From the NCBI GenBank assembly GCA_021809185.1, contig JAKBAI010000168.1, positions 1-12,660 of the forward strand: DNA of 12,660 nt, written 5' to 3'. Numbering within the stretch: position 1 is the first letter of the stretch; each line of letters opens with the position of its first letter. The notes under the pieces are model-generated. The model saw only the letters and a program-made list of their open reading frames with translations, made no database searches and was not told where the DNA came from. Of this stretch, positions 1 to 12,660 are shown in pieces. The position numbers and the translations under genes are program-made. This stretch comes from Planctomycetota bacterium (GTDB lineage Bacteria > Planctomycetota > Planctomycetia > Gemmatales > Gemmataceae).

Positions 1-652
1 CCTCTTTATCGACATCTGCTGCGTTATAGCCTGCGCGCCTCATGATAATTTTTGCTAGATCATTGGGGCGATATGATGGCAATGGATGATTCGGATTTCC
101 TGAAGGCATGTGAGTCTGTTTAGCGATTTTAGCAGCTTGTGCTTGGTTGAATGCCTCCATACCGACACCATCCCGGTAATCTTTGGCGTTGATTCCGCCC
201 GGATTCTGAACGTAGCTATTCGATAACTTTCTTGAAGTGCGAACATCCTCTTCAATTGCCATATTGGCTAGTTCCAGGCTCAAAATTGCTGCTAGTTCGC
301 TATCATTATTACACTTATTGACAAGAGATTCTGTGATAACAACCTGATCACTCAACTGGTGGAATACAGAATCGAGATTGGCATTTTGGCCACGGTATAT
401 ATTGCCATTCGCTTCGCGCGCCAATCCGATGGTCACAAATTGCGTATATTGGAGATTGAGATCCGGATTTTTGGCTATTAAACTTCTCCCAACCGAATCA
501 ACTCGGCTCGATACTTCCGTATTTGCTTTTGGAAATCGGCTAAGATCGATCACCGGTTCATTGCGCAAGCCACGATACTGCGATCGATCATTCGTACAGC
601 TCGCTAGGGATATTGCCATCAACCCTACCAAGTAAATCCAACTCGTTTTCAT
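1..652 (-). CDS. Lipoprotein, M48-peptidase-like with degenerate HExxH; 5' end complete, 3' end runs off the window (>=217 aa)
   Basis: A manual reverse-complement translation from the ATG at 652 to position 2 is open with no stop (frame 652 mod 3 = 1), and continues off the window edge. The ORF track omits it for that reason. The N-terminus MKTSWIYLVGLMAISLASC is a signal peptide with lipobox L-A-S-C. A GGAG sits 7 nt upstream of the ATG. An internal ...NKCNNDSELAAILSLELANMAIEE... aligns to the M48 motif (S/D)ELAAVLAHE(I/L)GH, with both His replaced (L and N). The downstream IIMRRAGYNAADV resembles the M48 'LARAGYDP' region. Confidence 0.6.
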   Translation of the reverse strand, partial: MKTSWIYLVGLMAISLASCTNDRSQYRGLRNEPVIDLSRFPKANTEVSSRVDSVGRSLIAKNPDLNLQYTQFVTIGLAREANGNIYRGQNANLDSVFHQLSDQVVITESLVNKCNNDSELAAILSLELANMAIEEDVRTSRKLSNSYVQNPGGINAKDYRDGVGMEAFNQAQAAKIAKQTHMPSGNPNHPLPSYRPNDLAKIIMRRAGYNAADVDKE

Positions 653-1206
653 AGGAATTCTCCACATCTATTTCTGAAGCTCGGCATGATCCTATCATTC
701 TTCTTGAACAAATCGGAAATCCATCGATTTCACCATCTTGAATACTGATCCATTCCACTTTTTGGAAATATATTCCAGGTACCTTACTGTCAAGAGCAGA
801 TAAGATTGGCAAAATTGTGGTATTTCTTCCTATGAAAATAAGATAGGGAATCTTAATTCTTAAGGGGACCGATTGAATCTCTCGCCAAAAATATTACAAT
901 AACCTATACAATATAGATAAAATGAATGAAATTAGATTGTTGAACCTATTTAGCGATCTATCGTGAATAGATAGTTCAAAAGATTAAGATTGTTAGCGAA
1001 TCAGCAAACTACCAGTTAATCAGAAAATGTAAAATCGAAACTTCACAAGAAGTTCCGTAAATATTCTTCAAACTGATTGATTAATGATGCCCAGAGTAGA
1101 CCACCTGCATCAAGAAAGGTACTTCTACTTTGAATCCTACTTTTTTTCCTAAAAGTGATTGAATTCTCAGAATTTGAACTTCCAATTAAAAGGAGTATAT
1201 TTGGGA

Positions 1207-1239
1207 AGTTGAATAAGAAAGTTGAATAAGAAAGTTGAG
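1207..1239 (+). repeat. 13-bp tandem direct repeat AGTTGAATAAGAA x2 plus partial third copy (AGTTGAG), ending 12 bp upstream of the start codon at 1252
   Basis: Read directly: agttgaataagaa (1207-1219), agttgaataagaa (1220-1232), agttgag (1233-1239). It lies in an AT-rich 600-bp divergent intergenic region. Confidence 0.85.
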
Positions 1240-1251
1240 TTAAAAATTTAA

Positions 1252-2178
1252 ATGATGAAAGATTCCGCAATTCCCAGCACTTCAGTTATCTCTCAAAATA
1301 TTATTCAGGATTCAACGAGTACTGAAGAACTTCAAGACCAATTGGCCTCCTTATTAAGTGAACAGCAAGAAAGTGAACAAGAACTAGAATTAGAAGATCG
1401 TAAAACTGGCAAACTTAAAGAAAGCTGGCAACAAATACGCAACATTCCTTGCCACCGTTGTCAAAAATTGTATTGTGGTCATGAAGCCCTTTTAAGTATC
1501 GCTCTAGGGTTCAAGAATACCCCCTATTGCTTAATTTGTCTGGCCAGTGGGCTAAATCGTTCGGTAAGCGAATTGATGGAACAATTAAGTTTATATATCC
1601 AGAGACACACCTGTTTTCGCACCGTCTGGATGATCGCCTCGAGAGAAGAACAGATCGAGGATATGCTTATCCCCATTTGTATTCAATCGCTTCTGGCCAC
1701 TGAAAAGAGTAAGATAGTCATGAATACTAGCAATAATAGCTTACGACAGTCTAACGACCAATCTGATTCCCGTCGATATCCGAGCACAAATCAATCAGAG
1801 TCAAATTCGCAATTTTGCCAAAGTCAGCAATCTCAAAGTGAACAATCTCAAAGTCAGCAATCGGAGAATTTGACACAATCTTGTTCAAGTAACCGTGGCA
1901 ATCCGATGAAAACTACTCCAGACTCAGATTTAAAAGAGCCAGCAGATCAGCTTACAACTGCCATCCAATCGGAAGTTTTTGATGCAGGAAACATGGGTTG
2001 TGGAAATCTCGTTTTGGCATTACGATTAAAATTAAAATCGTTACCCCCCGGAACTCTTTTAACGGTAATCGCTCAAGACCCCGCTGCGCCACAAGATCTG
2101 CCTGCATGGTGCCGTATGACTGGTCACCGTTTACTCGAAACTCAGCACCCTAATTATCTTATTCAACGAAAGGATTAA
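1252..2178 (+). CDS. Two-domain protein: N-terminal Cys/His-rich domain (C-x2-C-x5-C-x-H ... C-x2-C), Q/S/N-rich linker, C-terminal TusA-like sulfur-carrier domain with atypical C-G-N active-site motif
   Basis: 308-aa ORF. The C-terminal ...FDAGNMGCGNLVLALRLKLKSLPPGTLLTVIAQDPAAPQDLPAWCRMTGHRLLETQHPNYLIQRKD aligns to E. coli TusA (LRCPEPVMMVRKTV...[26 protein letters not shown]...YLIRKG), with the active Cys conserved but CPxP replaced by CGN. The N-terminal CHRCQKLYCGHE...YCLICL cluster is probably a metal-binding module. The gene ends 6 bp before the next gene, suggesting an operon. Confidence 0.8.
   Translation: MMKDSAIPSTSVISQNIIQDSTSTEELQDQLASLLSEQQESEQELELEDRKTGKLKESWQQIRNIPCHRCQKLYCGHEALLSIALGFKNTPYCLICLASGLNRSVSELMEQLSLYIQRHTCFRTVWMIASREEQIEDMLIPICIQSLLATEKSKIVMNTSNNSLRQSNDQSDSRRYPSTNQSESNSQFCQSQQSQSEQSQSQQSENLTQSCSSNRGNPMKTTPDSDLKEPADQLTTAIQSEVFDAGNMGCGNLVLALRLKLKSLPPGTLLTVIAQDPAAPQDLPAWCRMTGHRLLETQHPNYLIQRKD
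1819..1863 (+). repeat. In-frame 15-bp tandem repeat x3 (CAAAGTCAGCAATCT / CAAAGTGAACAATCT / CAAAGTCAGCAATCG) encoding QSQQS-QSEQS-QSQQS within the linker of the 1252..2178 CDS
   Basis: Read directly from the sequence. The first and third units differ by 1 nt. The unit length is a multiple of 3, so copy-number change would keep the frame. Confidence 0.85.
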
Positions 2179-2184
2179 CTTGTT

Positions 2185-2547
2185 ATGTCGAATAAATTTT
2201 GTTTGGTTTTAACTCATGCCAAGGACAATGTCGATCGAGCCACAGTCGCCTTTGTGGTTGCCAATGCAGCATTAGCATCGGACAAAGAGACCGTAGTCTT
2301 TTTAACCGTGGAGGGGGTCCATCTAAGCCAAGTTGGGTACGCGAACGATCTTCACGAACCCGGTTTTGCACCCCTCAAAGATTTAATTGCGCAGTTCACC
2401 GGCTCTGGCGGGCAGATCTGGGTCTGTTCCCCATGCTTCAAAAAACGCAAGTTAGAAGAAAATAAACTGGTTCAGGGGGCCATTCTAGTTGGCGGTGCCA
2501 AACTGGTAGAATTTCTATCGGATGGTGCCCCCTGTGTCTCCTATTGA
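2185..2547 (+). CDS. DsrE/DsrF-like (YchN-fold) sulfur-relay family protein
   Basis: 120 aa. The pattern is typical of the family. The N-terminus KFCLVLTHAKDN...ATVAFVVANAALASDKETVVFLTVEGVHL resembles the DsrE start (LIIVTSGPYG...AL..AL..GHEV.VFF..DGV). There is a conserved Cys in ...QIWVCSPC... (DsrE 'VCS' active-site region). The C-terminus LVQGAILVGGAKLVEFLSDGAPCVSY matches the family end. The gene starts 6 bp after the previous stop. Confidence 0.8.
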   Translation: MSNKFCLVLTHAKDNVDRATVAFVVANAALASDKETVVFLTVEGVHLSQVGYANDLHEPGFAPLKDLIAQFTGSGGQIWVCSPCFKKRKLEENKLVQGAILVGGAKLVEFLSDGAPCVSY

Positions 2548-2763
2548 CATTTAAACTCGAACGAGGATCGGCAAATTCAAACCGATTTTGGTTATTGTGT
2601 TGTTTATTCTCGTTTTTTCCTCGTCTTATTCTCCGTGCAAATGGAATGAGACGATCAAAATTCGTTCCTTATTCTTTCAGCTTATTCAACAAGTGGATTC
2701 TCTGCAAAGGTCGATTCTTTGTTTTGATTAGTCAGGAAAAATCCGAATTAGAAGGGTAATATC

Positions 2764-4434
2764 ATGAACGATTCAACCCATCCTCCAGAGACAGCAAAAA
2801 CTGAATTACCTGCAAAGGAGAATCAGCAATCTTCAGCTCTTCCATGGCAAGCGGACAGTGTTTTTCATGGTGGGGATATGGACTGCGGCAACGGATTGCT
2901 GTTAATGATTCGTAAACATCTCGATACATTGAGCGCAGGTCAGTTTTTAGAAATAACTTCAACGGAATCATCGGTCGAAGTCGATCTACCTGCCTGGTGT
3001 CAACTAACGAACAACGAGTTAATTGCGAAAAGGATATTACAAACTGCCGAAGCAACACCAAAAACAACCTGTTATCTCATTCGCAAAGGGGAGAAAGCAC
3101 GAAAGTTGACCTCATCTCCACCTAAATCTGAAATCTCAAGCGGTATATCTAGTGGAACATCCACTGGAACATTCACTACAGAAGAGTTAATCTCCCGTAA
3201 CGAAGAATCTCGAGAGACATACTCTGAAAAATCATCTAAAAGAAGTAGTTCAGGAAAAATCGTTAGGTCAACAGAATATCCTTGGTCAGAGTTACCTCTT
3301 CTACCCGTGATGGGGATCGGTTCTTGGCCGAGACCCCCTTGGCTCCTCACAGCTTTAGAAGAATATGTTTCCAATCGCATGCCCGATCCGGTCTTCCAAG
3401 CTTTGGCCAATCACGCTGTCCAAGAAGCGGTGCGAATGCAAACCGATGCAGGGGTTGACATCATTACCGATGGGGAACAGCGCCGGGATAGCTATGCAAG
3501 TTTTGTCGGCTTACGACTGCAGGGTTGCCAGCTAATTCCATTAGCGGATCTAGCCATTTATTCTCAACACCCAAACGAATTTACGCAAAGCCTGAAGGCA
3601 CTAGATGTTCCTCGAGATCAGCGGCACCCTGCGGTTATTCATCAACTTCAGCGAACTCGCTCGTTAGCTGTCGATGAATATCGCTTTGCTCGCCAACAAA
3701 CCGATCTACCTATTAAAATAGCACTGCCTGGCCCCTATCTTTTACAACGTACTCTCTGGCTCGATTGTATCCCGAATCAGATCTACCAAAACCGAGAGAC
3801 TCTTGCGGATGATCTTGTCAAAATTTTACGAGAAGAGATTGCCGATTTACTCGCGGCGGGGGTTGCCCTTATCCAATTCGATGAACCGGTCTTGACCGAG
3901 GTCGTCTATGGGAAAAAATCAGCGGATCGTTCTTTTATGTGCGGTGCTCTTGCCGAGGCCAGTTCCCCTGCCGAAGAATTGGCTAGAGCAGAAAATTTAT
4001 TGCTCCGAGTGATTGAAGGCTTCCCTCCCCAGCGCCTTGGCTTGCATATCTGCCGCGGTAACTGGTCGCGCGATGAATCGGTAGCCTTGACTGGAAATTA
4101 CCAACCCCTTTTACCACTTTTAACGAAACTCCCTTTTGGCACTCTCTTTTTAGAACTTTGTACACCGAGAGCAGGCGAAATGGCGATTCTAAGCGATCTC
4201 CCTAGCTACCAAAAAATTGGTATCGGTATCGTCAATCCGAAACAGATACGGGTTGAAACCGTTGATGAAATCAAACAAAAAATCGATCGAGCAATCGCCA
4301 CATTTGGCATCGATCGCATTCTGCTCACTCCGGATTGTGGCTTTGCCACTTTTGCCTTGCATCCCCTCTCAAGTAGCCAAATCGCTCAACAGAAACTCGC
4401 CAACATAGTCCGAGCTGCAACACAATACCGCTGA
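2764..4434 (+). CDS. Fusion protein: N-terminal TusA-like domain (C-G-N motif), S/T-rich linker, C-terminal cobalamin-independent methionine synthase (MetE) catalytic-domain-like Zn-dependent thiol methyltransferase domain
   Basis: 556 aa. Residues ~35-110, GGDMDCGNGLLLMIRKHL...VEVDLPAWCQLTNNELIAKRI...TTCYLIRKG, align to TusA including the C-terminal YLIRKG. A low-complexity S/T linker spans ~3106-3300. From ~3301 the sequence shows MetE C-terminal-domain hallmarks. MGIGSWPRP matches the TIGSFPRT motif. DIITDGEQRRDSYASFVG matches DVLVHGEFERNDMVEYFG. GLHICRGN matches the H-x-C zinc ligands (E. coli His641/Cys643). LLTPDCGFAT matches VNPDCGLKTR (Cys726). Confidence 0.85.
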   Translation: MNDSTHPPETAKTELPAKENQQSSALPWQADSVFHGGDMDCGNGLLLMIRKHLDTLSAGQFLEITSTESSVEVDLPAWCQLTNNELIAKRILQTAEATPKTTCYLIRKGEKARKLTSSPPKSEISSGISSGTSTGTFTTEELISRNEESRETYSEKSSKRSSSGKIVRSTEYPWSELPLLPVMGIGSWPRPPWLLTALEEYVSNRMPDPVFQALANHAVQEAVRMQTDAGVDIITDGEQRRDSYASFVGLRLQGCQLIPLADLAIYSQHPNEFTQSLKALDVPRDQRHPAVIHQLQRTRSLAVDEYRFARQQTDLPIKIALPGPYLLQRTLWLDCIPNQIYQNRETLADDLVKILREEIADLLAAGVALIQFDEPVLTEVVYGKKSADRSFMCGALAEASSPAEELARAENLLLRVIEGFPPQRLGLHICRGNWSRDESVALTGNYQPLLPLLTKLPFGTLFLELCTPRAGEMAILSDLPSYQKIGIGIVNPKQIRVETVDEIKQKIDRAIATFGIDRILLTPDCGFATFALHPLSSSQIAQQKLANIVRAATQYR

Positions 4435-4577
4435 CCGCCGTTACGATGTATTCTTAAAAGTGAAATTCAAGCGTCAGAAAAAAATGTCATTTACAAGCTC
4501 TTCGCCAAAAGATCCGACCTTCCGAAAAGTGATAGATAATCGATTTTTGAGCTTGACAAATCAATTCAACCTCGCTA

Positions 4578-5417
4578 ATGACAATCATTTCAAGCATAGA
4601 AAGCGGGAGAGATGAATTGCAACGGTATCAGGTAACTTTACCTATTTTTTACGGCCCGCTCGATCTGTTATTATTCCTAGTCAAGCGGAACGAAATTAAC
4701 CTTCTCGATATTTCCATCGCGCAAATTACAGATCAATTTTTGCAATATCTCGCCGTTATCGAATTCATCGATGTCGATAGTGCTGGGGAATTTCTCATTG
4801 TTGCTGCCACGTTGCTGGAAATGAAAAGCCGATTATTGTTGCCGGTTAGCATCGATGAATCTGAGGAAGAAACCGGGGAAGACCCCCGCCGAGAGCTGAT
4901 TCGCCAATTGATGGAGTATCGCAAATTCAAAGATGCTTCCGGAAAAATCGATCAGCTTGTGCAGGAACAGGAAAAATATCTTACTCGAAAACCGCTCGGC
5001 TCAAACCAACTATCCGGGGAGTCGACCGAATTGAAATCGGTTGAAATCTGGGATCTGGTCGCTGCTTTTGGTCGATTAGTTCGCCAAGTCAAGATTGCTC
5101 AACCCCAAACAACGATTATCGATGAAACCCCGCAAGTGGTTTATGAAAATCTGATTATCGACAAGCTGCACATCGAACATCGGTTCCCTTTTGAAAGTCT
5201 ATTTATTCCCCCTTTCCAGAAAACCAAAATGATTGGGCTTTTCCTAGCTTTACTGGAACTGATTAAACGAAGATTCGTCCATTTGGAACAACAGGAACCT
5301 TTCGGGACCATCTGGATCGAGCTGGCCCCCTCTGCCGAAGAATCGTCACCAATGGCCCATGAAAATGCGAACGAAATTGCCACAGATTCTCCCATCAACT
5401 ATGAAGATTCCATGTAA
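4578..5417 (+). CDS. scpA: Segregation and condensation protein A (ScpA, kleisin of the SMC-ScpAB complex)
   Basis: 279 aa. ...RYQVTLPIFYGPLDLLLFLVKRNEINLLDISIAQITDQFLQY... matches the ScpA N-terminal signature (B. subtilis [22 protein letters not shown]...). The C-terminal ...LFLALLELIKRRFVHLEQQEPFGTIWIEL is the ScpA winged-helix end. An alternative start is the in-frame TTG at 4617, which is preceded by GGGAGA with a 6-nt spacer and would give M-QRYQV. Confidence 0.85.
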   Translation: MTIISSIESGRDELQRYQVTLPIFYGPLDLLLFLVKRNEINLLDISIAQITDQFLQYLAVIEFIDVDSAGEFLIVAATLLEMKSRLLLPVSIDESEEETGEDPRRELIRQLMEYRKFKDASGKIDQLVQEQEKYLTRKPLGSNQLSGESTELKSVEIWDLVAAFGRLVRQVKIAQPQTTIIDETPQVVYENLIIDKLHIEHRFPFESLFIPPFQKTKMIGLFLALLELIKRRFVHLEQQEPFGTIWIELAPSAEESSPMAHENANEIATDSPINYEDSM

Positions 5418-5530
5418 ATGATGTTGTTATAAACAATAGCTTATTTTCCAAATTTCCTCTGACAGAATCAGCAAAAAAATTCAATCAATGATCATCATTT
5501 GATCAAATGAAGTATTTCTAGAGACTAAAA

Positions 5531-5580
5531 TCTATCCCTCTCTCTACTCTTAATTTCCTATCTTTCCTCTTTTCTCTACC
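5531..5580 (+). other. Polypyrimidine (CT-rich) tract in the scpA–ATPase intergenic region
   Basis: tctatccctctctctactcttaatttcctatctttcctcttttctctacc is almost entirely pyrimidines on the plus strand. Confidence 0.6.
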
Positions 5581-5591
5581 GATCTGATTTC

Positions 5592-5597
5592 TATAAT
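5592..5597 (+). promoter_or_regulatory. Candidate -10 hexamer TATAAT 38 bp upstream of the ATPase start codon; no convincing -35 element
   Basis: Exact TATAAT at 5592-5597, downstream of the CT-rich tract. The sequence 17 bp upstream (cttttc) matches TTGACA poorly. Confidence 0.25.
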
Positions 5598-5635
5598 AGG
5601 CAATCGATAGATAAACCTAAATACGATCAATCGTT

Positions 5636-8600
5636 ATGCACCGAGAAATATCTCACACCGATTTACTAGGACCACGTAAAAGCAACACCTCTTTATACGT
5701 GTTTTCATTATTTGTTGGATTTTTACTCGCTCGTGATCTACTCCCCAAATTGCAAGAAGGGTTTCGCTATTTCGGGATCGAAACGGGTCAAAGTACGCGA
5801 TTCCTGTTTGATTATCGATATGCTCTCCTGGCCGCTATCGTTGGTGGAGCACGAGTATTATTTTACTCACTGGAAAAATTGTTGGAAGGCAAGCTCGTCG
5901 CCGATCTAGCGATAGCGATTGCTTGTCTAGCCGCTATTGCCATGAAAGAGCCGCTGGTAGCTAGCGAAGTTGTTTTTATTGGCTTATTGGGCGAATGCCT
6001 GGAAGCTTACACCATGCAGCGGGGCCAGAGTGGAATTGCTCAATTAATTGAACTATTTCCACTCCGGACATGGGTTTTACGCAACGGTAGCGAAGTTCGC
6101 ATCTTGACTACCGAGCTTGTGCGCGGGGATGAAGTGGTTGTCAAACCGGGTGGAAAAATCCCGGTGGATGGCACGATTATGAGCGGTTCGAGCTGCATCG
6201 ATTTTAGCGCTTTGACAGGAGAGAGTATTCCCCAAGATAAATCGGTAGGGGATAAAGTATTTGCCGGTGGAATCAACCAGCAAGGCCAAATAACAATTCG
6301 AGCGGAAGCTGTTTACCAACAGACGGTTGCTGGCAAAGTAATCGATTATACCGTACAAGCCTTACAAGATAAAACGAAACAGGAACGAATTGTAGATCGC
6401 TATGCCCGCTATTTCTTGCCGGTGGTGCTTCTCATTGCTCTATTAACTCTGCTGGGCAATCTTTTCGCCTATATGGGACCGTTTCGACCAGCTAGCCAAC
6501 GGCTGAACTTCGTCCCTGCTCTGTATCTGGGTCTCTACCCGACGCTATCGGTATTAGTGGTCGCGTGCCCCTGTGCGCTGATTTTGGCAACCCCTGCTGC
6601 AATGGTTGCTGCCTTGGGTCGACTTGCTGGAACAGGTATCCTCATAAAAGGAGTATCGGTTCTGGAGAAACTCACGCAAGTGAACGCGATCGCTTTTGAT
6701 AAAACAGGTACACTCACCGAAGGGAAATTGGCTCTCTCATCTATTTTACCCGAACCGGGCTATCAAGAACTCGCTATCTTGCAAATCATGAGTAGTATCG
6801 AACAGAGCAGCGACCATCCTATTGCGCAATGCTTCCAGCGTGAACGGGAATCTCGCCAGCTACCCCTGCTGGCTATGTCGAATTATCAAACCGTTCCTGG
6901 CCAAGGAATGAGTGCCGAGTATAATCAGGAGTTCTACTGGGCAGGTAGCTCACGCTGGCTTGCCACGCAAGGCATTATTTTAAGTGAAGAACAAACGCAA
7001 ACTCTGAACCGATTGCATCAGCAAAGCGAAACCGTTATCTTTCTAGGTAAAAACAAAGATGTGATCGGCTTTTTTGGCGTTAAAGATACCATTCGCGCGG
7101 ATGCCGAACATACACTTATCGAATTGAGAAAATCGGGAATTGAAAAAATCCTTATTCTGAGTGGCGATCAACAAAATATCGTTGAACATGTTGCGGAAAC
7201 CCTTGCCATCAAAGAGTATTATGGAAATTGTCTTCCCCTCGAAAAGGCCGAGAAAATAAAAGAATTTAGCACGGCAGCGATCGTAAACCCCGCTTTGGCT
7301 AGCAACGATACTACTCATCGTTCAAATCCAAGCGACGATTCTATCGCCTTTTCTATCGGCTATCCTATCAGCTCAACAACGAAGGGGAGCACACCCCCCT
7401 CCTATCGGTTTGCCTTTGTTGGAGATGGTATCAACGACGCTCCAGCTCTGGTTGCTGCCGAAGTTGGTATTGCCGTGGGAAGTGGTAGCGACCTCGCGCG
7501 GCATGCCGGCTCTATTGTTTTATTAGGGTCTCCTTTATCTTCGTTACCGTTGTTGTTTCGCTTGTCCCGCGAAACAATGCGAATCATCCAGCAAAATCTG
7601 ATCTTGTTTGCCTTTGGCGCGAACATCCTTGGAATTATTATCACGGCCTGGCTTTGGCCGCTCTTATCCCCTTCCTCCTTATGGTATGAACAGTCCCCCC
7701 TTGCTGCGGCCATATATCATCAATTTGGGTCGTTAGCAGTCTTATTGAATTCGATGCGGCTCCTATTTTTTGAAAACACCAAAGTAGCGAAAAGCTGGCA
7801 AAAGATTCAACAGCTATTCGAATCTCTACAAAAAAGCACCTTCCTTCCGTTTGATCTCGATCAGTTTTTACACACCCTTTTTGATTGGCGCAAACCGATC
7901 ATGACCGCCTGCGCGGGTTTAGCACTATTAGCATACTGCGGCACGGGCATTGTTATCATCCAAGCTAATGAAATTGGCATTGTGCAAACATTAGGACGTT
8001 GGTCGCGTGATCTTCCCCCAGGATGGCATTGGTGCTGGCCGATAGGGATCGATCAAATTACCAAACTAAAACCAGAGACCGAACAGATTGTCGAAATCGG
8101 GTTTCGCACTTTACCTAGTTCGAATCTAGACCAATCCCCTTTGCAGATTGATAGCCGGGTCCGAAATCAGCTAAGGGTGCGTGGACTAATCTGGGCCAGC
8201 GCCCATGGGGACAATATCCAGCGCTTAACCGATGAAGCGATCATGATAACCGGAGATGGCGACCTGATCGAGTTACTAGCCACTTTACGCTATACAATCC
8301 GCGACCCCCACCAATATCTATTCCAAGCCAACGATATACCGCAGATCGTGCAACAGATTACGGAGACGGTTTTCCGTGAACAGCTCGCGGGTCGATCGTT
8401 TCTGGATTTATTGACGACTCAACGGCTGGATCTCCAACGCCGAGCAGAATCGATTACCCAATTTCGCTGTGATACTATAATCCCTGGCGGACTCGGTATC
8501 ACGATTAAGGGTATCAGTATAGGAGACTTGCACCCACCGCAGGAGGTTGTCCCTGCCTATCATGAAGTGGCTCGCGCGATTCAACTAAGAGATCAACAGG

Positions 8601-9076
8601 TTAACAATGCAAAAGCGGACGCCATTCGTAAAGTTCGCTTGGCTCAAGAATCATCTTTACAAATGATCCGTACCGCCGAAGCTAAAAGCCATGAAAAGAT
8701 TGCCCAAGCTCAGGCCGATCGGGATAACTTTCTAGCTTGGCATCTCTATCGGTCCGAATTAACTTCAGAAGAAGAGAATCGGCTCAAAGCGTTAATGGCA
8801 AAATGGCAGCAAGATGGGTTCAACATTCAGGAAATACAAAGCCGACGAATTCAGGAACGATTATTGATGCTCCAGACCAAACAAAATCTCTCCGAATCGC
8901 AATTAATGTGGACTATGCTCACTTCCGTATTAAAAAATCGTGATAAAATTATCATCGATGCCGATAACCTACCGGGGAAAAGACAACTATTTTTGGTTGA
9001 TCCGAATTCGCTTCGCCCGAATCTCCTTTTGCCACCGGATTCCCTCAAACAGGCTATGCCGGAACGTAAAGATTAG
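5636..9076 (+). CDS. Fusion: P1B-type heavy-metal-translocating P-type ATPase (no N-terminal metal-binding domain) fused to a C-terminal HflK-like SPFH/band-7 domain with its own TM anchor and coiled-coil tail
   Basis: Single 1146-aa ORF. ATPase motifs: TGES actuator motif (ALTGESIP), TM6 [10 protein letters not shown] (Cys at 6566-6574), DKTGTLT (6698-), SxHP (SSDHPIAQ) and [10 protein letters not shown] (7421-). The ATPase part ends ~[10 protein letters not shown] (7742-7771). After a ~45-aa linker comes the TM helix [21 protein letters not shown] (7898-). From there the sequence aligns to HflK. [27 protein letters not shown] matches [59 protein letters not shown] matches the LLTADENIVDVDFAVQYRIVDPEKYLF region. 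[21 protein letters not shown] matches PPEEVKAAFDDVIKARED. A coiled-coil tail follows. Confidence 0.85.
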   Translation: [1146 protein letters not shown]

Positions 9077-9157
9077 TTTCTTATCGTTTGATTGTGCTCA
9101 ATAAATATAAACTGATCAATAATCTAGATTACGAAATGACTATCTCGAATAGAATCA

Positions 9158-9175
9158 GGGGGGCTTACGCCCCCC
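9158..9175. terminator. Perfect GC hairpin (GGGGGGC-TTAC-GCCCCCC) between convergent genes; candidate bidirectional intrinsic terminator
   Basis: Read directly: 7-bp perfect stem made only of G and C, with a 4-nt loop, in an otherwise AT-rich 165-bp gap between the + gene ending at 9076 and the - gene ending at 9242. The flanking U-runs are poor, so confidence is moderate. Confidence 0.5.
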
Positions 9176-9241
9176 GCTCGACTTGGTTGAAGGATAACGA
9201 CCCCAGCAAGAGATCTAAATAAGCTTTTGACTCGTGGACAA

Positions 9242-10363
9242 TTACTTTAATTTTTTCTTTGGTGTTGCTTCGTGAGCGTTCAGGTTATTTAGGACTTCTT
9301 TCAATTTAGCCTGAGCTGTGCTATTTTCTGGTAACGGTTTTTCCTGAATCGCTGGTAAAAGTTTCTCCCAGATCGCATTCAGTTGACCTTGCATATTATT
9401 GGTTTTTGCGGTGATGGCGATAACAGCATCTAATTCGGGAAGAACAATACAGAATTGCCCATCCTTTCCATCGCCGCGAAAAGCATGATGACGACAACGC
9501 CAGAATTGATAGCAGTAGCCCTGATCCCAATCGCTATTAGGATTACTTCCATTCGATGTTTGTTTGGTGGTGGCCATGGAGACCCAAGATTCCGGAATGA
9601 GTTGTTTTCCTTGCCATTTCCCTTTTTGGAGATATAGTTGACCAAACTTAGCGATATCTTCGGTACGAATAAATAAGCCATAGCCACCGATACTAATTCC
9701 TTGGGGGCTGGCATCCCAGACCGGATCGTCGATACGCAGAGGGTCGAAAAGTCGTGGTTTCAGATAATCTAAAACAGTATTCCCTGTTGTTTTTTGCACA
9801 ATAGCGGAAAGCATGTAGGTAGCTGGGGTATTGTACATAAAGTGTGTGCCGGGTTTAAAAGGAACGGGGTGAGCGAGGAACGACTTTACCCAAGGAACAT
9901 CTTTCTGAAATCGCACTTCGCTGGTATGACCAGCAGACATGCAGAGCAGATCGCGGACACGCATATTGCGAAGATTGGCCGATGGGTTCTCTGGAGCCAT
10001 ATCGGGAAAGAACTTCAATACTTCATCATCCAGGGAAAATTTCCCTTCATGAATTGCTAACCCAACAGCGGTGGATGTAAAACTTTTGCTCAAAGAGAAC
10101 ATAACGTGCTTCGTTTCGGGGGTTTGTGGTTTCCACCAACCTTCGGCAACCACTTTCCCATGGCGAACGAGCATAAAACTATGCATGGTATTGATTTTCT
10201 TGTCTATCGTTTCGATAAATTCGATTATTCCCTGAGAAGATATTCCCTCCGCTTCTGGAGTGGAACGCGGTAAGGGAAAGGCCTTTTTATCCTCGCTGTA
10301 TAACGAGAATGGAGAGAAAAGACAGATAAAAGCAATTAGATAATTGGAACTTAAAAAACGCAT
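9242..10363 (-). CDS. Secreted beta-lactamase-family serine hydrolase (class C beta-lactamase / esterase-like)
   Basis: 373 aa. There is an N-terminal signal peptide (MRFLSSNYLIAFICLFSPFSLYS). The S-x-x-K active-site motif appears in FSLSKSFTSTAVGLAI, ~25 aa after a Gly/Trp-rich region typical of the family (LVRHGKVVAEGWW). Length and layout are consistent with the AmpC/EstB-like fold. A GAGG lies 9 nt upstream of the ATG. Confidence 0.75.
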   Translation of the reverse strand: MRFLSSNYLIAFICLFSPFSLYSEDKKAFPLPRSTPEAEGISSQGIIEFIETIDKKINTMHSFMLVRHGKVVAEGWWKPQTPETKHVMFSLSKSFTSTAVGLAIHEGKFSLDDEVLKFFPDMAPENPSANLRNMRVRDLLCMSAGHTSEVRFQKDVPWVKSFLAHPVPFKPGTHFMYNTPATYMLSAIVQKTTGNTVLDYLKPRLFDPLRIDDPVWDASPQGISIGGYGLFIRTEDIAKFGQLYLQKGKWQGKQLIPESWVSMATTKQTSNGSNPNSDWDQGYCYQFWRCRHHAFRGDGKDGQFCIVLPELDAVIAITAKTNNMQGQLNAIWEKLLPAIQEKPLPENSTAQAKLKEVLNNLNAHEATPKKKLK

Positions 10364-10389
10364 TTTTTTTTACCTCATTTATCAAGAGT

Positions 10390-10433
10390 GTAATAAGAGA
10401 GTAACAAGCATGTAACAAGCATGTATCAAGGCG
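10390..10433. repeat. 11-bp tandem direct repeat x4 (GTAATAAGAGA / GTAACAAGCAT / GTAACAAGCAT / GTATCAAGGCG), 27-70 bp upstream of the minus-strand start at 10363
   Basis: Read directly. The two central copies are identical and the outer ones are degenerate. Confidence 0.8.
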
Positions 10434-10460
10434 ATCGTTTGCGAAATTCCCCTTTCGGGT

Positions 10461-10533
10461 TCTCTAGACAGTATCTCTAGTCAGTATCTCTAGACAGTAT
10501 CTCTAGACAATATATAGACAGAGTATAGACAAT
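10461..10533. repeat. 13-bp tandem direct repeat TCTCTAGACAGTA x4 (single mismatches) plus ~1.5 degenerate copies (TATAGACAGAGTA TAGACAAT); each unit contains the palindrome TCTAGA
   Basis: Read directly: units at 10461-10473, 10474-10486 (A to T), 10487-10499 and 10500-10512 (G to A), then a degenerate tail to 10533. The array lies between the transglutaminase-like gene stop (10570) and the serine-hydrolase start (10363). Confidence 0.85.
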
Positions 10534-10569
10534 CAACCAAATAACAAATATTCTAATTTAACGGTTCGC

Positions 10570-12087
10570 TTATTTCGAAACAGCTTTCAGTTCTCGCGTC
10601 AAATCGATCATTTTGGGCGGAGCGTTCCCTCCCACATCAATTTCAAACTTATAGGGTAAACGGTTCACCTCGCGCGATACGGTTTTGATTGGTCCATACT
10701 GGATCCCTTTGCCATCCCATCGGGATCTTTTTTGAGGATTGGCAATATTCGATTCTTGATAACGATAGGTTACCACCAGTTTAGAATTATCTGGGAGTTT
10801 ATTGTTGTTACAGCTTACGGTAATCTTATTTTTGCCGGGAATTAGATAGGGCAAAGCGTTTCGATTGTGTTCGACCTGGGCTTTTAATTGGAGATTCTGA
10901 ATATTCCCTTGAAATTCCAGTTTGAAAGAGAGATGATATTTTTGTTTTGCCAGTTTAGAAATATCTTCCCAACGGCAGAGTTGCCACGATTTACCTCGAT
11001 TGGTAGAAACCGCAATAACATCATCTTTGCGATTGGAATCGGTCGATATATTTACAGATACGAAGGGATACGCAGAAGGGAGTTGCAAAATCAAAACCCC
11101 TTTGCCATTATTTTTGTTAGGATCCTGAACCGTTAGGCCATGTTGAGTAACCATGGCATTTTGAAATTCCAGATAATCGAAGGGCTGATCGGGTTGAAAA
11201 TGGACTTGATAAAGAAAGGTGCCATTCGACCAGTTTCGCGGGCCGTAATGTTCCAAACGTGGTCCGAGAACTTTGTCATGGATAAAATCTTTGATTCCAC
11301 AAGAATGTTGTGGAGGTTTTCCAGAAACAGCAAACCCAAAAGGATCCCCTTTCCAGGCTAAGGTCAATGAACTATGGAGGGGTAAATGAACCAATGGTTG
11401 GTAATCTTGGTCACGCCAGGTAACGGAGGCCCAGCCTTTGGCATTTCCTTCAATATGCCGATGTTGACAGCCTTGGATAACATCCTGAGGCGCATCTCCA
11501 CAACATAAATTTTGCCGAGCGGCTCGATTTTCTTTCATAGCATCCAGCACAATCGAAGGATCTTTGGCAATCTCTTCTTGAGAAACAATATGCGTTTTAT
11601 CTTTCGACCAATAATAGCACTTGAGAAAGACATCAAAATAGTGCCAACGATTATCGTATTTCACTTCGATCGTGGTGTGTCCGGGCCAACCCACATAGCG
11701 GCATTCCCAACCCGCGGTTTCAAAAAGTGCTTTGAGGACCGTATGCTGACCTCCGCAAAGCCCCCACCCATACACATTAATTATCTTTAACGGCCCAACC
11801 GATTGCGGAGCCGATTCCACCGGATAAGCCCAATGAAAGATCGTGTTATGAAGATATTCGTAAATCGCAATTGCTTTTTCATCATTGGTTTTCGCCTGCG
11901 CTCGTTGGATTGCTTGTTGAACAATCGTTTCCAGCGATGAAGAATCGATGGTTTGATCGGTTGTTATTTTCACCCCTTTGACATCTGCCCTTAGCTGATG
12001 GCACATAAATAAATCAGAATGGATTATCATCAATAAAGACCATGTCCAAACTGAGAAATATGTTCGTAAACGGTGCATGGTTGTCAT
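10570..12087 (-). CDS. Secreted transglutaminase-like (Cys-His-Asp papain-fold) domain protein with beta-rich C-terminal region
   Basis: 505 aa. The core GLCGGQHTVLKALFETAGWECRYVGWPGHTTIEVKYDNRWHYFD matches the transglutaminase-like pattern G.C...A.L...LR..GIPAR.V.G....HAW.EV.....W..FD (Cys, then His, then Asp). The signal-peptide-like N-terminus is MHRLRTYFSVWTWSLLMIIHS. The more likely start is the second ATG at 12078, which has a GAGG 9 nt upstream. The first ATG at 12087 abuts the GAGG with no spacer. Confidence 0.75.
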   Translation of the reverse strand: MTTMHRLRTYFSVWTWSLLMIIHSDLFMCHQLRADVKGVKITTDQTIDSSSLETIVQQAIQRAQAKTNDEKAIAIYEYLHNTIFHWAYPVESAPQSVGPLKIINVYGWGLCGGQHTVLKALFETAGWECRYVGWPGHTTIEVKYDNRWHYFDVFLKCYYWSKDKTHIVSQEEIAKDPSIVLDAMKENRAARQNLCCGDAPQDVIQGCQHRHIEGNAKGWASVTWRDQDYQPLVHLPLHSSLTLAWKGDPFGFAVSGKPPQHSCGIKDFIHDKVLGPRLEHYGPRNWSNGTFLYQVHFQPDQPFDYLEFQNAMVTQHGLTVQDPNKNNGKGVLILQLPSAYPFVSVNISTDSNRKDDVIAVSTNRGKSWQLCRWEDISKLAKQKYHLSFKLEFQGNIQNLQLKAQVEHNRNALPYLIPGKNKITVSCNNNKLPDNSKLVVTYRYQESNIANPQKRSRWDGKGIQYGPIKTVSREVNRLPYKFEIDVGGNAPPKMIDLTRELKAVSK

Positions 12088-12138
12088 CCTCGATTGAAAA
12101 TCGATGCTCGTTGAAATTCGTTCGTTGGCTTTTTATAT

Positions 12139-12180
12139 AGCTTGCTAATTAAAGCTTGCTAATTAAAGCTTGCTAATTAA
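12139..12180. repeat. 14-bp perfect tandem direct repeat AGCTTGCTAATTAA x3, 52-93 bp upstream of the minus-strand transglutaminase-like start
   Basis: Read directly: three identical units at 12139-12152, 12153-12166 and 12167-12180, followed by a partial agaatga. Confidence 0.9.
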
Positions 12181-12459
12181 AGAATGATAAATGGAGCGGT
12201 TGCTATCATCCCAATCTTATTCTAATGAATTTAAATAAGAGTAATTCGAGCAGTAATCTAGATTTTAGGATAGGAGCTTAGATTAGACAAGCCAATTCAA
12301 TTGGAAAAATCGAATAGATCCCCGTTCATGAATCATCTGAAATTGGTAATCTGATGATCAACCGCAAATAAAAGTTGGGATTTCGATAAAAATCTGTTCC
12401 AACAGAAAAATGAAAATCGAGGAGAAAGTGAGAAAAGAGGGGAAAGAGTAGTTGAATTA

Positions 12460-12660
12460 TTAATGCAAAAAAACAAATGAGGACTCTTTGAGTCCCCATT
12501 TGGCAAGATTATTATCGATTTCGATTGATTGAAGAGAACTATTCACTTCTGGTGGAGGGTAAACCGGGGAGATTGAACCCAGCACCGCCTTTGAGAAGCT
12601 GTTGTCGCGCTTGGGTTTGCTGGCCCAGACCATGAATTTTGATAAATCCTTGCGCAGCAT
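12460..12660 (-). CDS. Probable 3' end of a minus-strand gene extending beyond the window (unknown product)
   Basis: The open frame reaches the window edge, and the M at 12660 may be internal. It ends exactly at a hairpin plus U-run terminator, which supports a real gene end. No recognisable motifs. Confidence 0.3.
   Translation of the reverse strand: MLRKDLSKFMVWASKPKRDNSFSKAVLGSISPVYPPPEVNSSLQSIEIDNNLAKWGLKESSFVFLH
12466..12496 (-). terminator. Intrinsic terminator on the minus strand: stem GGACUC-AAA-GAGUCC followed by a U-run (UCAUUUGUUUUUUU)
   Basis: Plus strand 12481-12495 ggactctttgagtcc is a perfect 6-bp inverted repeat with a 3-nt loop. On the minus strand it is followed immediately by a T-rich run (complement of 12466-12478 aaaaaaacaaatg). 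It overlaps the last codons and stop of the minus ORF at 12460..12660. Confidence 0.55.

Follow-up and report, generated by a model that had tools for sequence, protein, structure and literature searches.

The 12,660-nucleotide stretch analysed here (the window) comprises positions 1 to 12,660 of the forward strand of contig JAKBAI010000168.1 (assembly GCA_021809185.1), from a Planctomycetota bacterium of the family Gemmataceae. It carries a gene at 5636-9076 on the plus strand in which a P1B-type metal ATPase is joined, through a linker and an extra membrane helix, to an HflK-like SPFH (Band 7) module. The gene is a single open reading frame (ORF) of 1146 codons and a stop, with an ATG start and zero internal stops in the ORF list and translation. 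The N-terminus M-H-R-E is well defined, because an in-frame stop lies five codons 5' of the ATG and the stop-to-stop segment starts only there. The gene on the 5' side is scpA, and the 3' neighbour is a convergent gene for a beta-lactamase-fold protein ending at 9242, as expected from a preliminary description of this DNA, made from its letters, which had placed a convergent gene 165 bp downstream. The same description considered the fusion of a metal pump with an HflK-like domain unusual. The copy in the window is an orphan, and atypical of its multi-phylum family, in which the gene mostly heads a conserved operon of up to three genes. The whole gene and its pump half contain the following features:

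5636..9076, plus strand: whole fusion gene, with P1B-type ATPase, linker, ninth membrane helix (TM9) and HflK-like SPFH/coiled-coil module (ORF, Pfam, NCBIfam, AlphaFold2)
5636..5647, plus strand: N-terminal M-H-R-E, at least 90% conserved in 120 homologues
5687..6049, plus strand: membrane helices MA, MB, TM1 and TM2, residues 18-138 (AlphaFold2 helices 18-45, 62-83, 89-102 and 106-138; hydropathy)
6215..6226, plus strand: TGES, A-domain dephosphorylation motif, residues 194-197 (sequence, Pfam)
6566..6574, plus strand: C311-P-C313 in TM4, invariant in 98 sequences (AlphaFold2 helix break at 310-312)
6698..6712, plus strand: DKTGT phosphorylation motif with Asp355 (translation, invariant columns)
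6815..6820, plus strand: His394-Pro395, the nucleotide-domain dipeptide typical of P1B ATPases (translation, conservation profile)
7271..7408, plus strand: window-specific low-complexity insertion of 46 residues in the P domain, residues 546-591 (homologues mostly gapped; predicted local distance difference test, pLDDT, below 50 at 555-584)
7421..7444, plus strand: GDGINDAP hinge, residues 596-603 (translation, invariant columns)
7544..7666, plus strand: TM5, residues 637-677, with invariant Asn663 (HMMER alignment to PDB 3rfu, invariant columns, AlphaFold2 helix)
7694..7768, plus strand: TM6, residues 687-711, with Y-H695-Q-F-G-S699, His695 invariant (alignments, conservation)

P1B ATPases are recognised by a DKTGT motif, a TGES motif, a GDGxNDxP hinge, an HP dipeptide in the N domain and a CPx motif in TM4. 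All of these are in place in the fusion protein (TGES at residue 194, CPC at 311-313, DKTGT at 355, HP at 394-395 and GDGINDAP at 596), and the catalytic motifs are conserved or invariant in 98-120 homologues. Pfam assigns E1-E2_ATPase to residues 140-331 (E 2.5e-48) and Hydrolase to residues 350-531, and the NCBIfam model for P1B heavy-metal ATPases, TIGR01525, scores 501.7 bits with a cut-off of 346.25. The complete P1B ATPase read from these motifs in the preliminary description is therefore borne out. The AlphaFold2 model and hydropathy give eight pump helices (MA, MB and TM1-6) with the usual break of TM4 at the CPC. TM2 carries G119-E-C-L-E123, in which G119 and E123 are invariant among 98 sequences (conserved form G-E-x-L-E). 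When the full-length model (pLDDT 85.1) was compared with PDB structures by Foldseek, CopA, ZntA and sCoaT were the best and near-equal matches, with target-normalised TM-scores of up to 0.74, and in that fold search no solved chain spanned both halves. Judged from its sequence, the region of residues 1-711 is a P1B-type ATPase with intact catalytic motifs, predicted to export heavy metals.

No HMA-type metal-binding domain was matched by Pfam after MHRE, and distant clusters of the family start with MHY(V/I)PES. The conserved His2 in an HMA-less pump suggests a minimal N-terminal metal-binding or regulatory peptide.

The second half of the gene encodes these features:

7769..7888, plus strand: predicted cytoplasmic linker, residues 712-751, with the pattern D..lH...hrwK (family consensus; AlphaFold2 helices 719-736 and 741-750)
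7889..7960, plus strand: TM9, residues 752-775 (phmmer alignment to E. coli HflK 80-136 including its N-terminal helix; hydropathy 757-775; AlphaFold2 helix 752-769)
7955..8623, plus strand: SPFH/Band 7 domain, SPFH1 and SPFH2, residues 774-996 (Pfam PF01145, NCBIfam, Foldseek)
8099..8224, plus strand: fusion-specific insertion in SPFH1, residues 822-863, G-F-R...W853-x-S-x-H857...R863 (alignment; pLDDT low at 836-856)
8525..8548, plus strand: D-L-H966-P-P-Q-E-V at the junction of SPFH2 and the first coiled coil (alignment)
8549..8932, plus strand: coiled coils, CC1 of 69 residues (972-1040) and CC2 (1044-1059 and 1064-1099) (AlphaFold2, Foldseek)
8939..9004, plus strand: C-terminal motif R-D-K-x-x-I-D-A-x-x-x-P-G-x-R-x-L-x-L-x-D-P, residues 1102-1123, present in fused modules only (alignment)

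The HflK-like nature of this half, also proposed earlier, is upheld by profiles, by comparison with solved structures and by the predicted fold. Band_7 (PF01145) covers residues 774-996 (E 1e-16, 61.9 bits with a cut-off of 23.6). A phmmer search of PDB sequences gave E. coli HflK as best match (E 2e-13), membrane helix included, and Foldseek likewise ranked E. coli HflK first (7vhq_E, E 5e-17; then 9cz2 and 9paw). Subsequent Foldseek matches were HflC, QmcA, erlin, stomatin, prohibitin, flotillin and major vault protein, the top ones being SPFH proteins at probability 1.00. These proteins are formers of cages or rings, and to our knowledge all solved SPFH proteins form one or the other. The AlphaFold2 model of residues 701-1146 (mean pLDDT 83.9) shows, in order, the last pump helix, a linker helix, the membrane helix, SPFH1, a low-confidence insertion, SPFH2, CC1, CC2 and a tail; in the window copy the SPFH1 insertion contains about 15 extra residues (about 8141-8185), also of low confidence. 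The PPxEV motif and coiled-coil tail reported earlier correspond to DLHPPQEV at the junction and to CC1 and CC2 of the model.

The earlier reading of a linker and a new membrane helix (TM9) leading into an HflK-like domain is confirmed, and can be sharpened as to the domain. The hflK model TIGR01933 matches residues 772-1033 with 111-116 bits, under its equivalog cut-off of 159.4. Because this threshold is missed and the module has hallmark residues of its own, described below, the SPFH part is, on sequence criteria, best described as a distinct HflK-like subfamily and not as HflK proper.

Both termini of P1B pumps are cytoplasmic. We infer that the SPFH module faces the periplasm, because a cytoplasmic pump C-terminus is followed by one extra membrane helix. 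The membrane helix and SPFH align with E. coli HflK, the AlphaFold2 model contains the HflK-type order of a helix followed by SPFH, CC1 and CC2, and the count of eight plus one helices would set the N-in orientation. HflK, HflC and the operon partners described below have the same orientation as that predicted for the fused module, and such an orientation would be needed for co-assembly.

The possibility that separate ATPase and hflK genes were merged by an error in sequencing or assembly can for practical purposes be dismissed. An identical 1146-residue protein is encoded on six independently assembled contigs (including two metagenome-assembled genomes (MAGs) at NCBI, an assembly from ENA and one from Logan); on one of these contigs, of 211 kb, the neighbouring genes are those of the window. 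The single uninterrupted frame noted at the outset is thus real. Split genes at some homologous loci, e.g., those designated L001 and L002, could be taken in favour of such an error. Among 83 non-redundant related loci, however, 60 have a single full ORF, 13 are cut by a contig end and 10 are split; the two split loci inspected, L001 and L002, are frameshifted at separate points, each time with immediate resumption of the frame. The splits are mostly in long-read MAGs, and all 240 best matches of two full-length searches contain the three domains. A misassembly or frameshift origin of the fusion was rejected on these grounds and is refuted as far as sequence data allow.

The frameshift sites lie at 7842-8001 in L001 and at 7940-8000 in L002; L013, L031, L054, L064, L071, L073 and L086 are also affected. 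At such loci gene callers give two or more genes. In L086 the fusion gene is broken into five or more pieces; this may be a true pseudogene. Stand-alone or truncated SPFH forms were also considered and rejected. The C-terminal 446-residue query gave only proteins of at most 781 residues, of which two on long contigs were frameshift-split genes and the rest were fragments on short contigs; a full-length query made afterwards gave full-length fusions only.

Homologues with the same architecture, a search for which the preliminary description had proposed, exist in hundreds and in several bacterial phyla. The best 120 homologues of a full-length search are all 1053-1163 residues long and all have PF00122, PF00702 and PF01145; the named sources among them are Gemmata, Fimbriiglobus, Frigoriglobus tundricola and Singulisphaera acidiphila. 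In Gemmatales, Planctomycetaceae, Verrucomicrobia, Armatimonadetes and Fervidibacterota together, more than 200 full-length homologues (1000-1200 residues) with these three Pfam domains were found, and a scan of species-representative genomes, a collection without the genome of the window, gave relatives in 129 genomes, nearly all of Gemmatales. An exhaustive search with residues 701-1146 added, among its best 150 matches, 33 more clusters (50% identity) of about 990-1150 residues, each matched at the C-terminal end; one cluster is from Candidatus Fervidibacterota. A profile of the distant members again had only three-domain proteins among its best 120 matches, including those of Symmachiella dynata (Planctomycetaceae), Armatimonadetes and Verrucomicrobia. 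The window protein forms a long, deep branch, with a best non-self match of 49% identity. Recent transfer from a high-GC member of Gemmataceae is unlikely, because the G+C content of about 44% is uniform over the fusion gene and its neighbours. The top match of the distant-fusion profile, P0409 (EukProt g8285.t1, 1331 residues), belongs to a eukaryotic proteome set; it has the three domains and could be bacterial contamination or a horizontal transfer.

The description of the fusion as unusual calls for qualification. No publication on a P-type ATPase-SPFH fusion was found among the open-access papers and preprints searched (mention elsewhere is possible), and it is missing from a 2009 survey of prokaryotic SPFH proteins; the architecture is not rare, being that of a large multi-phylum family. 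Databases label members generically, e.g., as "cation-translocating P-type ATPase family protein" or "Cu+-exporting ATPase". Both parts, the P1B pump and the HflK/C-type scaffold, are of known kinds, and the fusion is in this respect not categorically new. According to a 2023 review of P-type ATPases, large terminal domains are absent from prokaryotic P1B pumps (PMC10654040); the present family contradicts this.

In most relatives the fusion gene does not stand alone. At the locus of the closest relative (L007) and at L001 it is directly followed by two Band_7 genes, the first encoding an HflC above the NCBIfam cut-off and the second an HflK-like protein. Of the 59 Gemmatales-type loci whose downstream sequence extends for at least 2.5 kb, 32 have the order fusion-hflC-hflK, six have hflC only and 21, the window included, have neither gene. 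Four distant members all have hflC directly 3' of the fusion; hflK is present too in Symmachiella, Armatimonadetes and an unnamed lineage, and the Verrucomicrobia member has hflC only. The operon partners have N-terminal membrane helices of the HflK/HflC type. The earlier observation that no hflC follows is thus true of the window, where none lies within 10 kb on either side, and atypical of the family, in which hflC is directly 3' in 38 of the 59 loci and in the four distant members. The orphan state is clade-specific on a neighbour-joining tree, e.g., in the Gemmata/Frigoriglobus clade, which suggests that the partners have been repeatedly lost or relocated in orphan clades.

All HflC partners tested score above the NCBIfam HflC cut-off, and of the three distant lineages with a second gene, two have one that passes the HflK cut-off. 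Such true partners speak for FtsH-coupled control, in which the fused HflK would hold FtsH together with HflC and HflK, and the pump would be placed beside the protease for quality control or for metal-dependent degradation or protection. In E. coli, FtsH binds the cage only via HflK, and Arg141, Glu142 and Arg185 were the residues targeted to break the contact (PMC13220708). The equivalents of Arg141 and Arg185 are Arg in 44 and 56 of 60 fusions, respectively. The pump-less HflK partners (HflK2) have Arg at the Arg141 equivalent in 29 of 37 and, near Arg185, an Arg one alignment column over in 33 of 37; HflC partners have Arg at neither position. The Glu142 equivalent is not conserved. A P-type ATPase, MgtA, is known as an FtsH substrate (PMC13220708 and references therein). 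However, no ftsH gene was found in any neighbourhood inspected, and the window protein has Gln at both Arg positions, Gln817 (8084-8086) and Gln906 (8351-8353), where other orphan fusions keep Arg at both. Control through FtsH as the purpose of the fusion, which is what distinguishes this explanation from the overlapping one favoured below, is considered unlikely.

FtsH-coupled control also leaves unexplained the hallmark residues of the fused module. In an alignment of 60 fusions, four distant fusions, 37 HflK2, 54 HflC and E. coli HflK and HflC, Trp853, His857 and His966 are invariant in 64 of 64 fusions and absent from the HflK2 and HflC partners and from both E. coli proteins; His976 is likewise specific to fusions. 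At the position of His966, within the PPxEV junction, E. coli HflK has Arg, E. coli HflC has Asn, and the operon partners have Ala/Leu or Asn/Ser. Invariance across phyla, in fused modules only, would be expected if the module acted in cis as a periplasmic lid, regulator or metal acceptor over the pump exit, in the manner of a metallochaperone and without any cage, with His857, His966 and Trp853 receiving or gating the exported ion. The absence of an adjacent SPFH partner at about one third of the loci, the window among them, also fits such a role. On the other hand, the long CC1 and CC2 and the conserved C-terminal motif, the cage-building parts of solved SPFH proteins, are fully kept, dedicated HflC and HflK partners are conserved across phyla, and the insertion bearing Trp853 and His857 gains no model confidence when the pump is present. 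A cage-free cis role is therefore quite improbable.

The motifs of the membrane helices give some indication of the metal. P1B-2 pumps (Zn2+/Cd2+/Pb2+) have a CPC in TM4, a conserved Lys in TM5 and an Asp-x-Gly in TM6; the fusion has the CPC, and the Lys and Asp are absent. In a HMMER alignment with L. pneumophila CopA (3rfu), Asn689 and Ser721 are kept as Asn663 and Ser699, Tyr688 is replaced by Ala and Met717 by His695. The fusion thus departs from P1B-1 (Cu+/Ag+) pumps at the Tyr of the CopA "YN" and the Met of "MxxSS", and the copper model TIGR01511 scores 348 bits, under its cut-off of 397. The Cd-type IB2 model TIGR01512 scores 392 bits, above its cut-off of 313.5. The fusion differs from P1B-4 pumps in having CPC and not SPC in TM4, and its TM6 HQFGS resembles HEGST without being identical, with His695 in exact register. 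All 33 distant clusters keep the CPC, and a TM6 pattern H-(Q/E)-x-x-S, with occasional substitutions, is found in the 25 where the pattern located TM6. The site is predicted to consist of Cys311, Cys313, Asn663, His695 and Ser699. The likely substrate is a divalent transition metal (of the Zn/Cd/Co/Ni/Fe class) and not Cu(I), because the Cd-type model passes, the Cu model fails and the TM6 His is in the P1B-4 register. The ligand set of CPC, Asn and His-Gln/Glu-x-x-Ser appears to lie outside the described subgroups, and the family would define a distinct P1B clade with an unclassified ligand set, for which the closest analogies may be P1B-4 and the CtpC/P1B-6-like pattern (PMC13460109).

Overall similarity was tried as a guide to the metal subclass and proved uninformative. 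No plasmid-borne P1B pump is more than 34% identical to the fusion, and CopA, ZntA and sCoaT score alike in both sequence and fold searches of the PDB. The plasmid pumps that align over the full core are P1B-4 pumps encoded beside czcA (L092 and L093), with SPC and HEGST and about 30% identity. Automated names conflict, for Symmachiella dynata (L088, CP036270.1) and for many JGI entries: "putative copper-importing P-type ATPase A", "Cu+-exporting ATPase", "cadmium-translocating P-type ATPase" and, for fragments, "HflK protein". None reflects the fusion. Copper-exporting or -importing labels are probably wrong on the metal, and they miss half of the protein.

The interpretation favoured here, which taken as a whole is held with somewhat better than even confidence, is that the pump forms part of a periplasm-facing oligomer of HflK/C type that clusters pump copies in a membrane microdomain for export of a divalent metal. 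A P1B pump of eight membrane helices with cytoplasmic A, P and N domains would export a divalent transition metal; its cytoplasmic C-terminus would lead through the linker of about 40 residues and the ninth helix to SPFH1, SPFH2 and the coiled coils on the periplasmic face. By analogy with other SPFH proteins, the module would oligomerise on the membrane, so that several pumps would be hard-wired into one microdomain. In most relatives the two co-transcribed proteins probably take part in a ring, in which HflC and HflK-type subunits would alternate and the latter may be pump-bearing or pump-less; the conserved operon makes such co-assembly considerably more likely. The pump-less HflK could then serve as a spacer, a simple limit on crowding. 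Such an arrangement would probably cluster and stabilise the pump and control events at its periplasmic exit. Trp853, His857 and His966 are candidates for a site in contact with the exported metal or the outer loops of the pump. The length of the linker is compatible with pumps inside or outside the ring. The window protein, without adjacent hflC or hflK, would have to use unlinked partners or assemble by itself. The ideas of caging or microdomain localisation and of a link to FtsH, raised in the preliminary description, are accordingly kept as hypotheses.

Several points weigh against the clustering of pumps in an SPFH oligomer. Ring formation is argued by analogy, and twelve or more 8-helix pumps per cage may be sterically demanding. 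The SPFH part scores under the HflK equivalog threshold. Confidence in the SPFH1 insertion is no higher in the full-length than in the C-terminal model, and docking of the insertion onto the pump is thus unsupported. The metal class is read from motifs only, Cu, Zn and Co/Cd pumps being almost equally similar overall. Finally, the window gene has no adjacent partners, and its protein alone among 60 fusions has Gln at both Arg141/Arg185 equivalents, so that it may work differently.

An extension of the same architecture, for which the chances appear slim, is a closed periplasmic cage of fusion, HflC and HflK acting as a metal-handling nanocompartment. Rim-anchored pumps would export divalent metal into the enclosed space, where it would be sequestered, buffered or handed to clients, and Trp853, His857 and His966 would line or gate the compartment. 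If true, this would give SPFH cages a new physiological role with a defined cargo.

Two further elements of the window flank the fusion gene:

5495..5510, no strand assigned: perfect 16-bp palindrome TCATTTGATCAAATGA, candidate operator, about 125 bp 5' of the start (sequence scan)
9158..9175, minus strand: G+C-rich G6-C6 hairpin GGGGGGCGTAAGCCCCCC in the 165-bp gap between the convergent genes, probably a terminator (sequence scan)

The palindrome, the sole exact copy in 23 kb of this genome, belongs to the AT-rich spacer of 218 bp that precedes the fusion gene. A search for Fur boxes was negative, and the palindrome does not have the canonical form of one. The window gave no match in Rfam or tRNA scans, and a promoter scan was uninformative. 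In the annotated neighbourhoods of the fusion loci inspected, no ftsH, NfeD, metallochaperone or regulator gene recurs. Further conserved neighbours were sought by all-against-all clustering of ORFs from the 83 loci; only SPFH genes were shared, and the clusters were dominated by high-GC shadow ORFs. In Symmachiella dynata (L088, 10327-10638) a 103-residue ORF with no family match lies between the fusion gene and hflC. Just 3' of the fusion-hflC-hflK operon, L001 (13297-14421) and L088 (12966-14895) have menaquinone genes of the futalosine pathway (VitK2_biosynth, radical-SAM CofH_C), the two loci being from distant planctomycetes; one recent report links E. coli HflK/C to aerobic respiration (PMC12005517). 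Elsewhere in the window, at 1252-4434, three co-directional genes encode a 308-residue protein with a C-terminal TusA domain, a 120-residue DsrE-like protein and a 556-residue fusion of a TusA-like N-terminus with the catalytic domain of cobalamin-independent methionine synthase. With a sulfur-relay module on a MetE-like enzyme, this architecture is itself unusual.

How SPFH cages (HflK/C, prohibitin, stomatin, flotillin, erlin) affect the membrane proteins that they enclose, and how clients are chosen, is a long-standing question, which persists partly because clients are usually transient and poorly defined. The fusion provides an HflK-type subunit with one defined, built-in client, an easily assayed metal pump, and a dedicated HflC and pump-less HflK are kept beside it in at least four phyla. 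It is a natural system for measuring stoichiometry, the position of the client inside or outside the ring, and effects on transport and turnover. Cultured carriers are available: Symmachiella dynata, Gemmata species, Frigoriglobus tundricola and Singulisphaera acidiphila.

Among known systems, E. coli HflK/HflC, the FtsH-holding cage (PDB 7vhp/7vhq, 7wi3, 9cz2 and 9paw), is the closest in sequence and fold. The fused module shares with E. coli HflK the N-in helix, SPFH1, SPFH2, the PPxEV junction, a long CC1, CC2 and a C-terminal tail; the relatives also have an hflK-type gene followed by hflC, as in E. coli, and a consensus Arg at the Arg141 and Arg185 positions. It differs in that a whole 8-helix P1B pump takes the place of the short cytoplasmic N-terminus, SPFH1 carries an insertion of about 40 residues, the PPxEV junction contains His, and CC2 and the C-terminal motif are longer; the operon has a third SPFH gene. 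The window copy differs further in that the partner is not nearby and both Arg positions are Gln.

P1B-4 pumps (SPC/HEGxT; Co/Zn/Cd/Ni/Fe; PDB 7qbz) have the TM6 His in the same register, and some distant fusions have HEGSS. Unlike P1B-4 pumps, the fusion has CPC, a TM5 Asn of the CopA type and an MHRE peptide instead of a metal-binding domain. An SPFH oligomer is associated with a specific membrane transport protein in stomatin-aquaporin 1 (PDB 9zd2), in stomatin-gap junction complexes (PMC12588285) and in flotillin-associated rhodopsin operons (PMC10308929). In these cases the association is non-covalent or operonic, the SPFH domain is on the cytoplasmic side, and there is no P-type ATPase or HflK/HflC pair.

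Precedents for scaffolded P1B pumps or for links between a pump and SPFH proteins are thus found in the flotillin-associated rhodopsins (PMC10308929) and in the PacL-CtpC/G/V "effluxosomes" of M. tuberculosis, where P1B exporters are clustered and stabilised in discrete domains by a co-expressed membrane scaffold (PMC13460109). By analogy, the PacL-Ctp effluxosome is the nearest functional precedent for the proposed role of the fusion. In both cases P1B pumps would depend on a scaffold, and CtpC too has CPC, a TM5 Asn and a TM6 His-amide-x-Ser/Thr, with a TM5-TM6 spacing of N-X18-H as compared with N-X31-H in the fusion. The PacL scaffolds are small, separate polypeptides of the DUF1490 kind, with Glu/Ala repeats on the cytoplasmic side, and are not SPFH proteins, whereas the scaffold of the fusion is covalent, of HflK type and predicted to be periplasmic.

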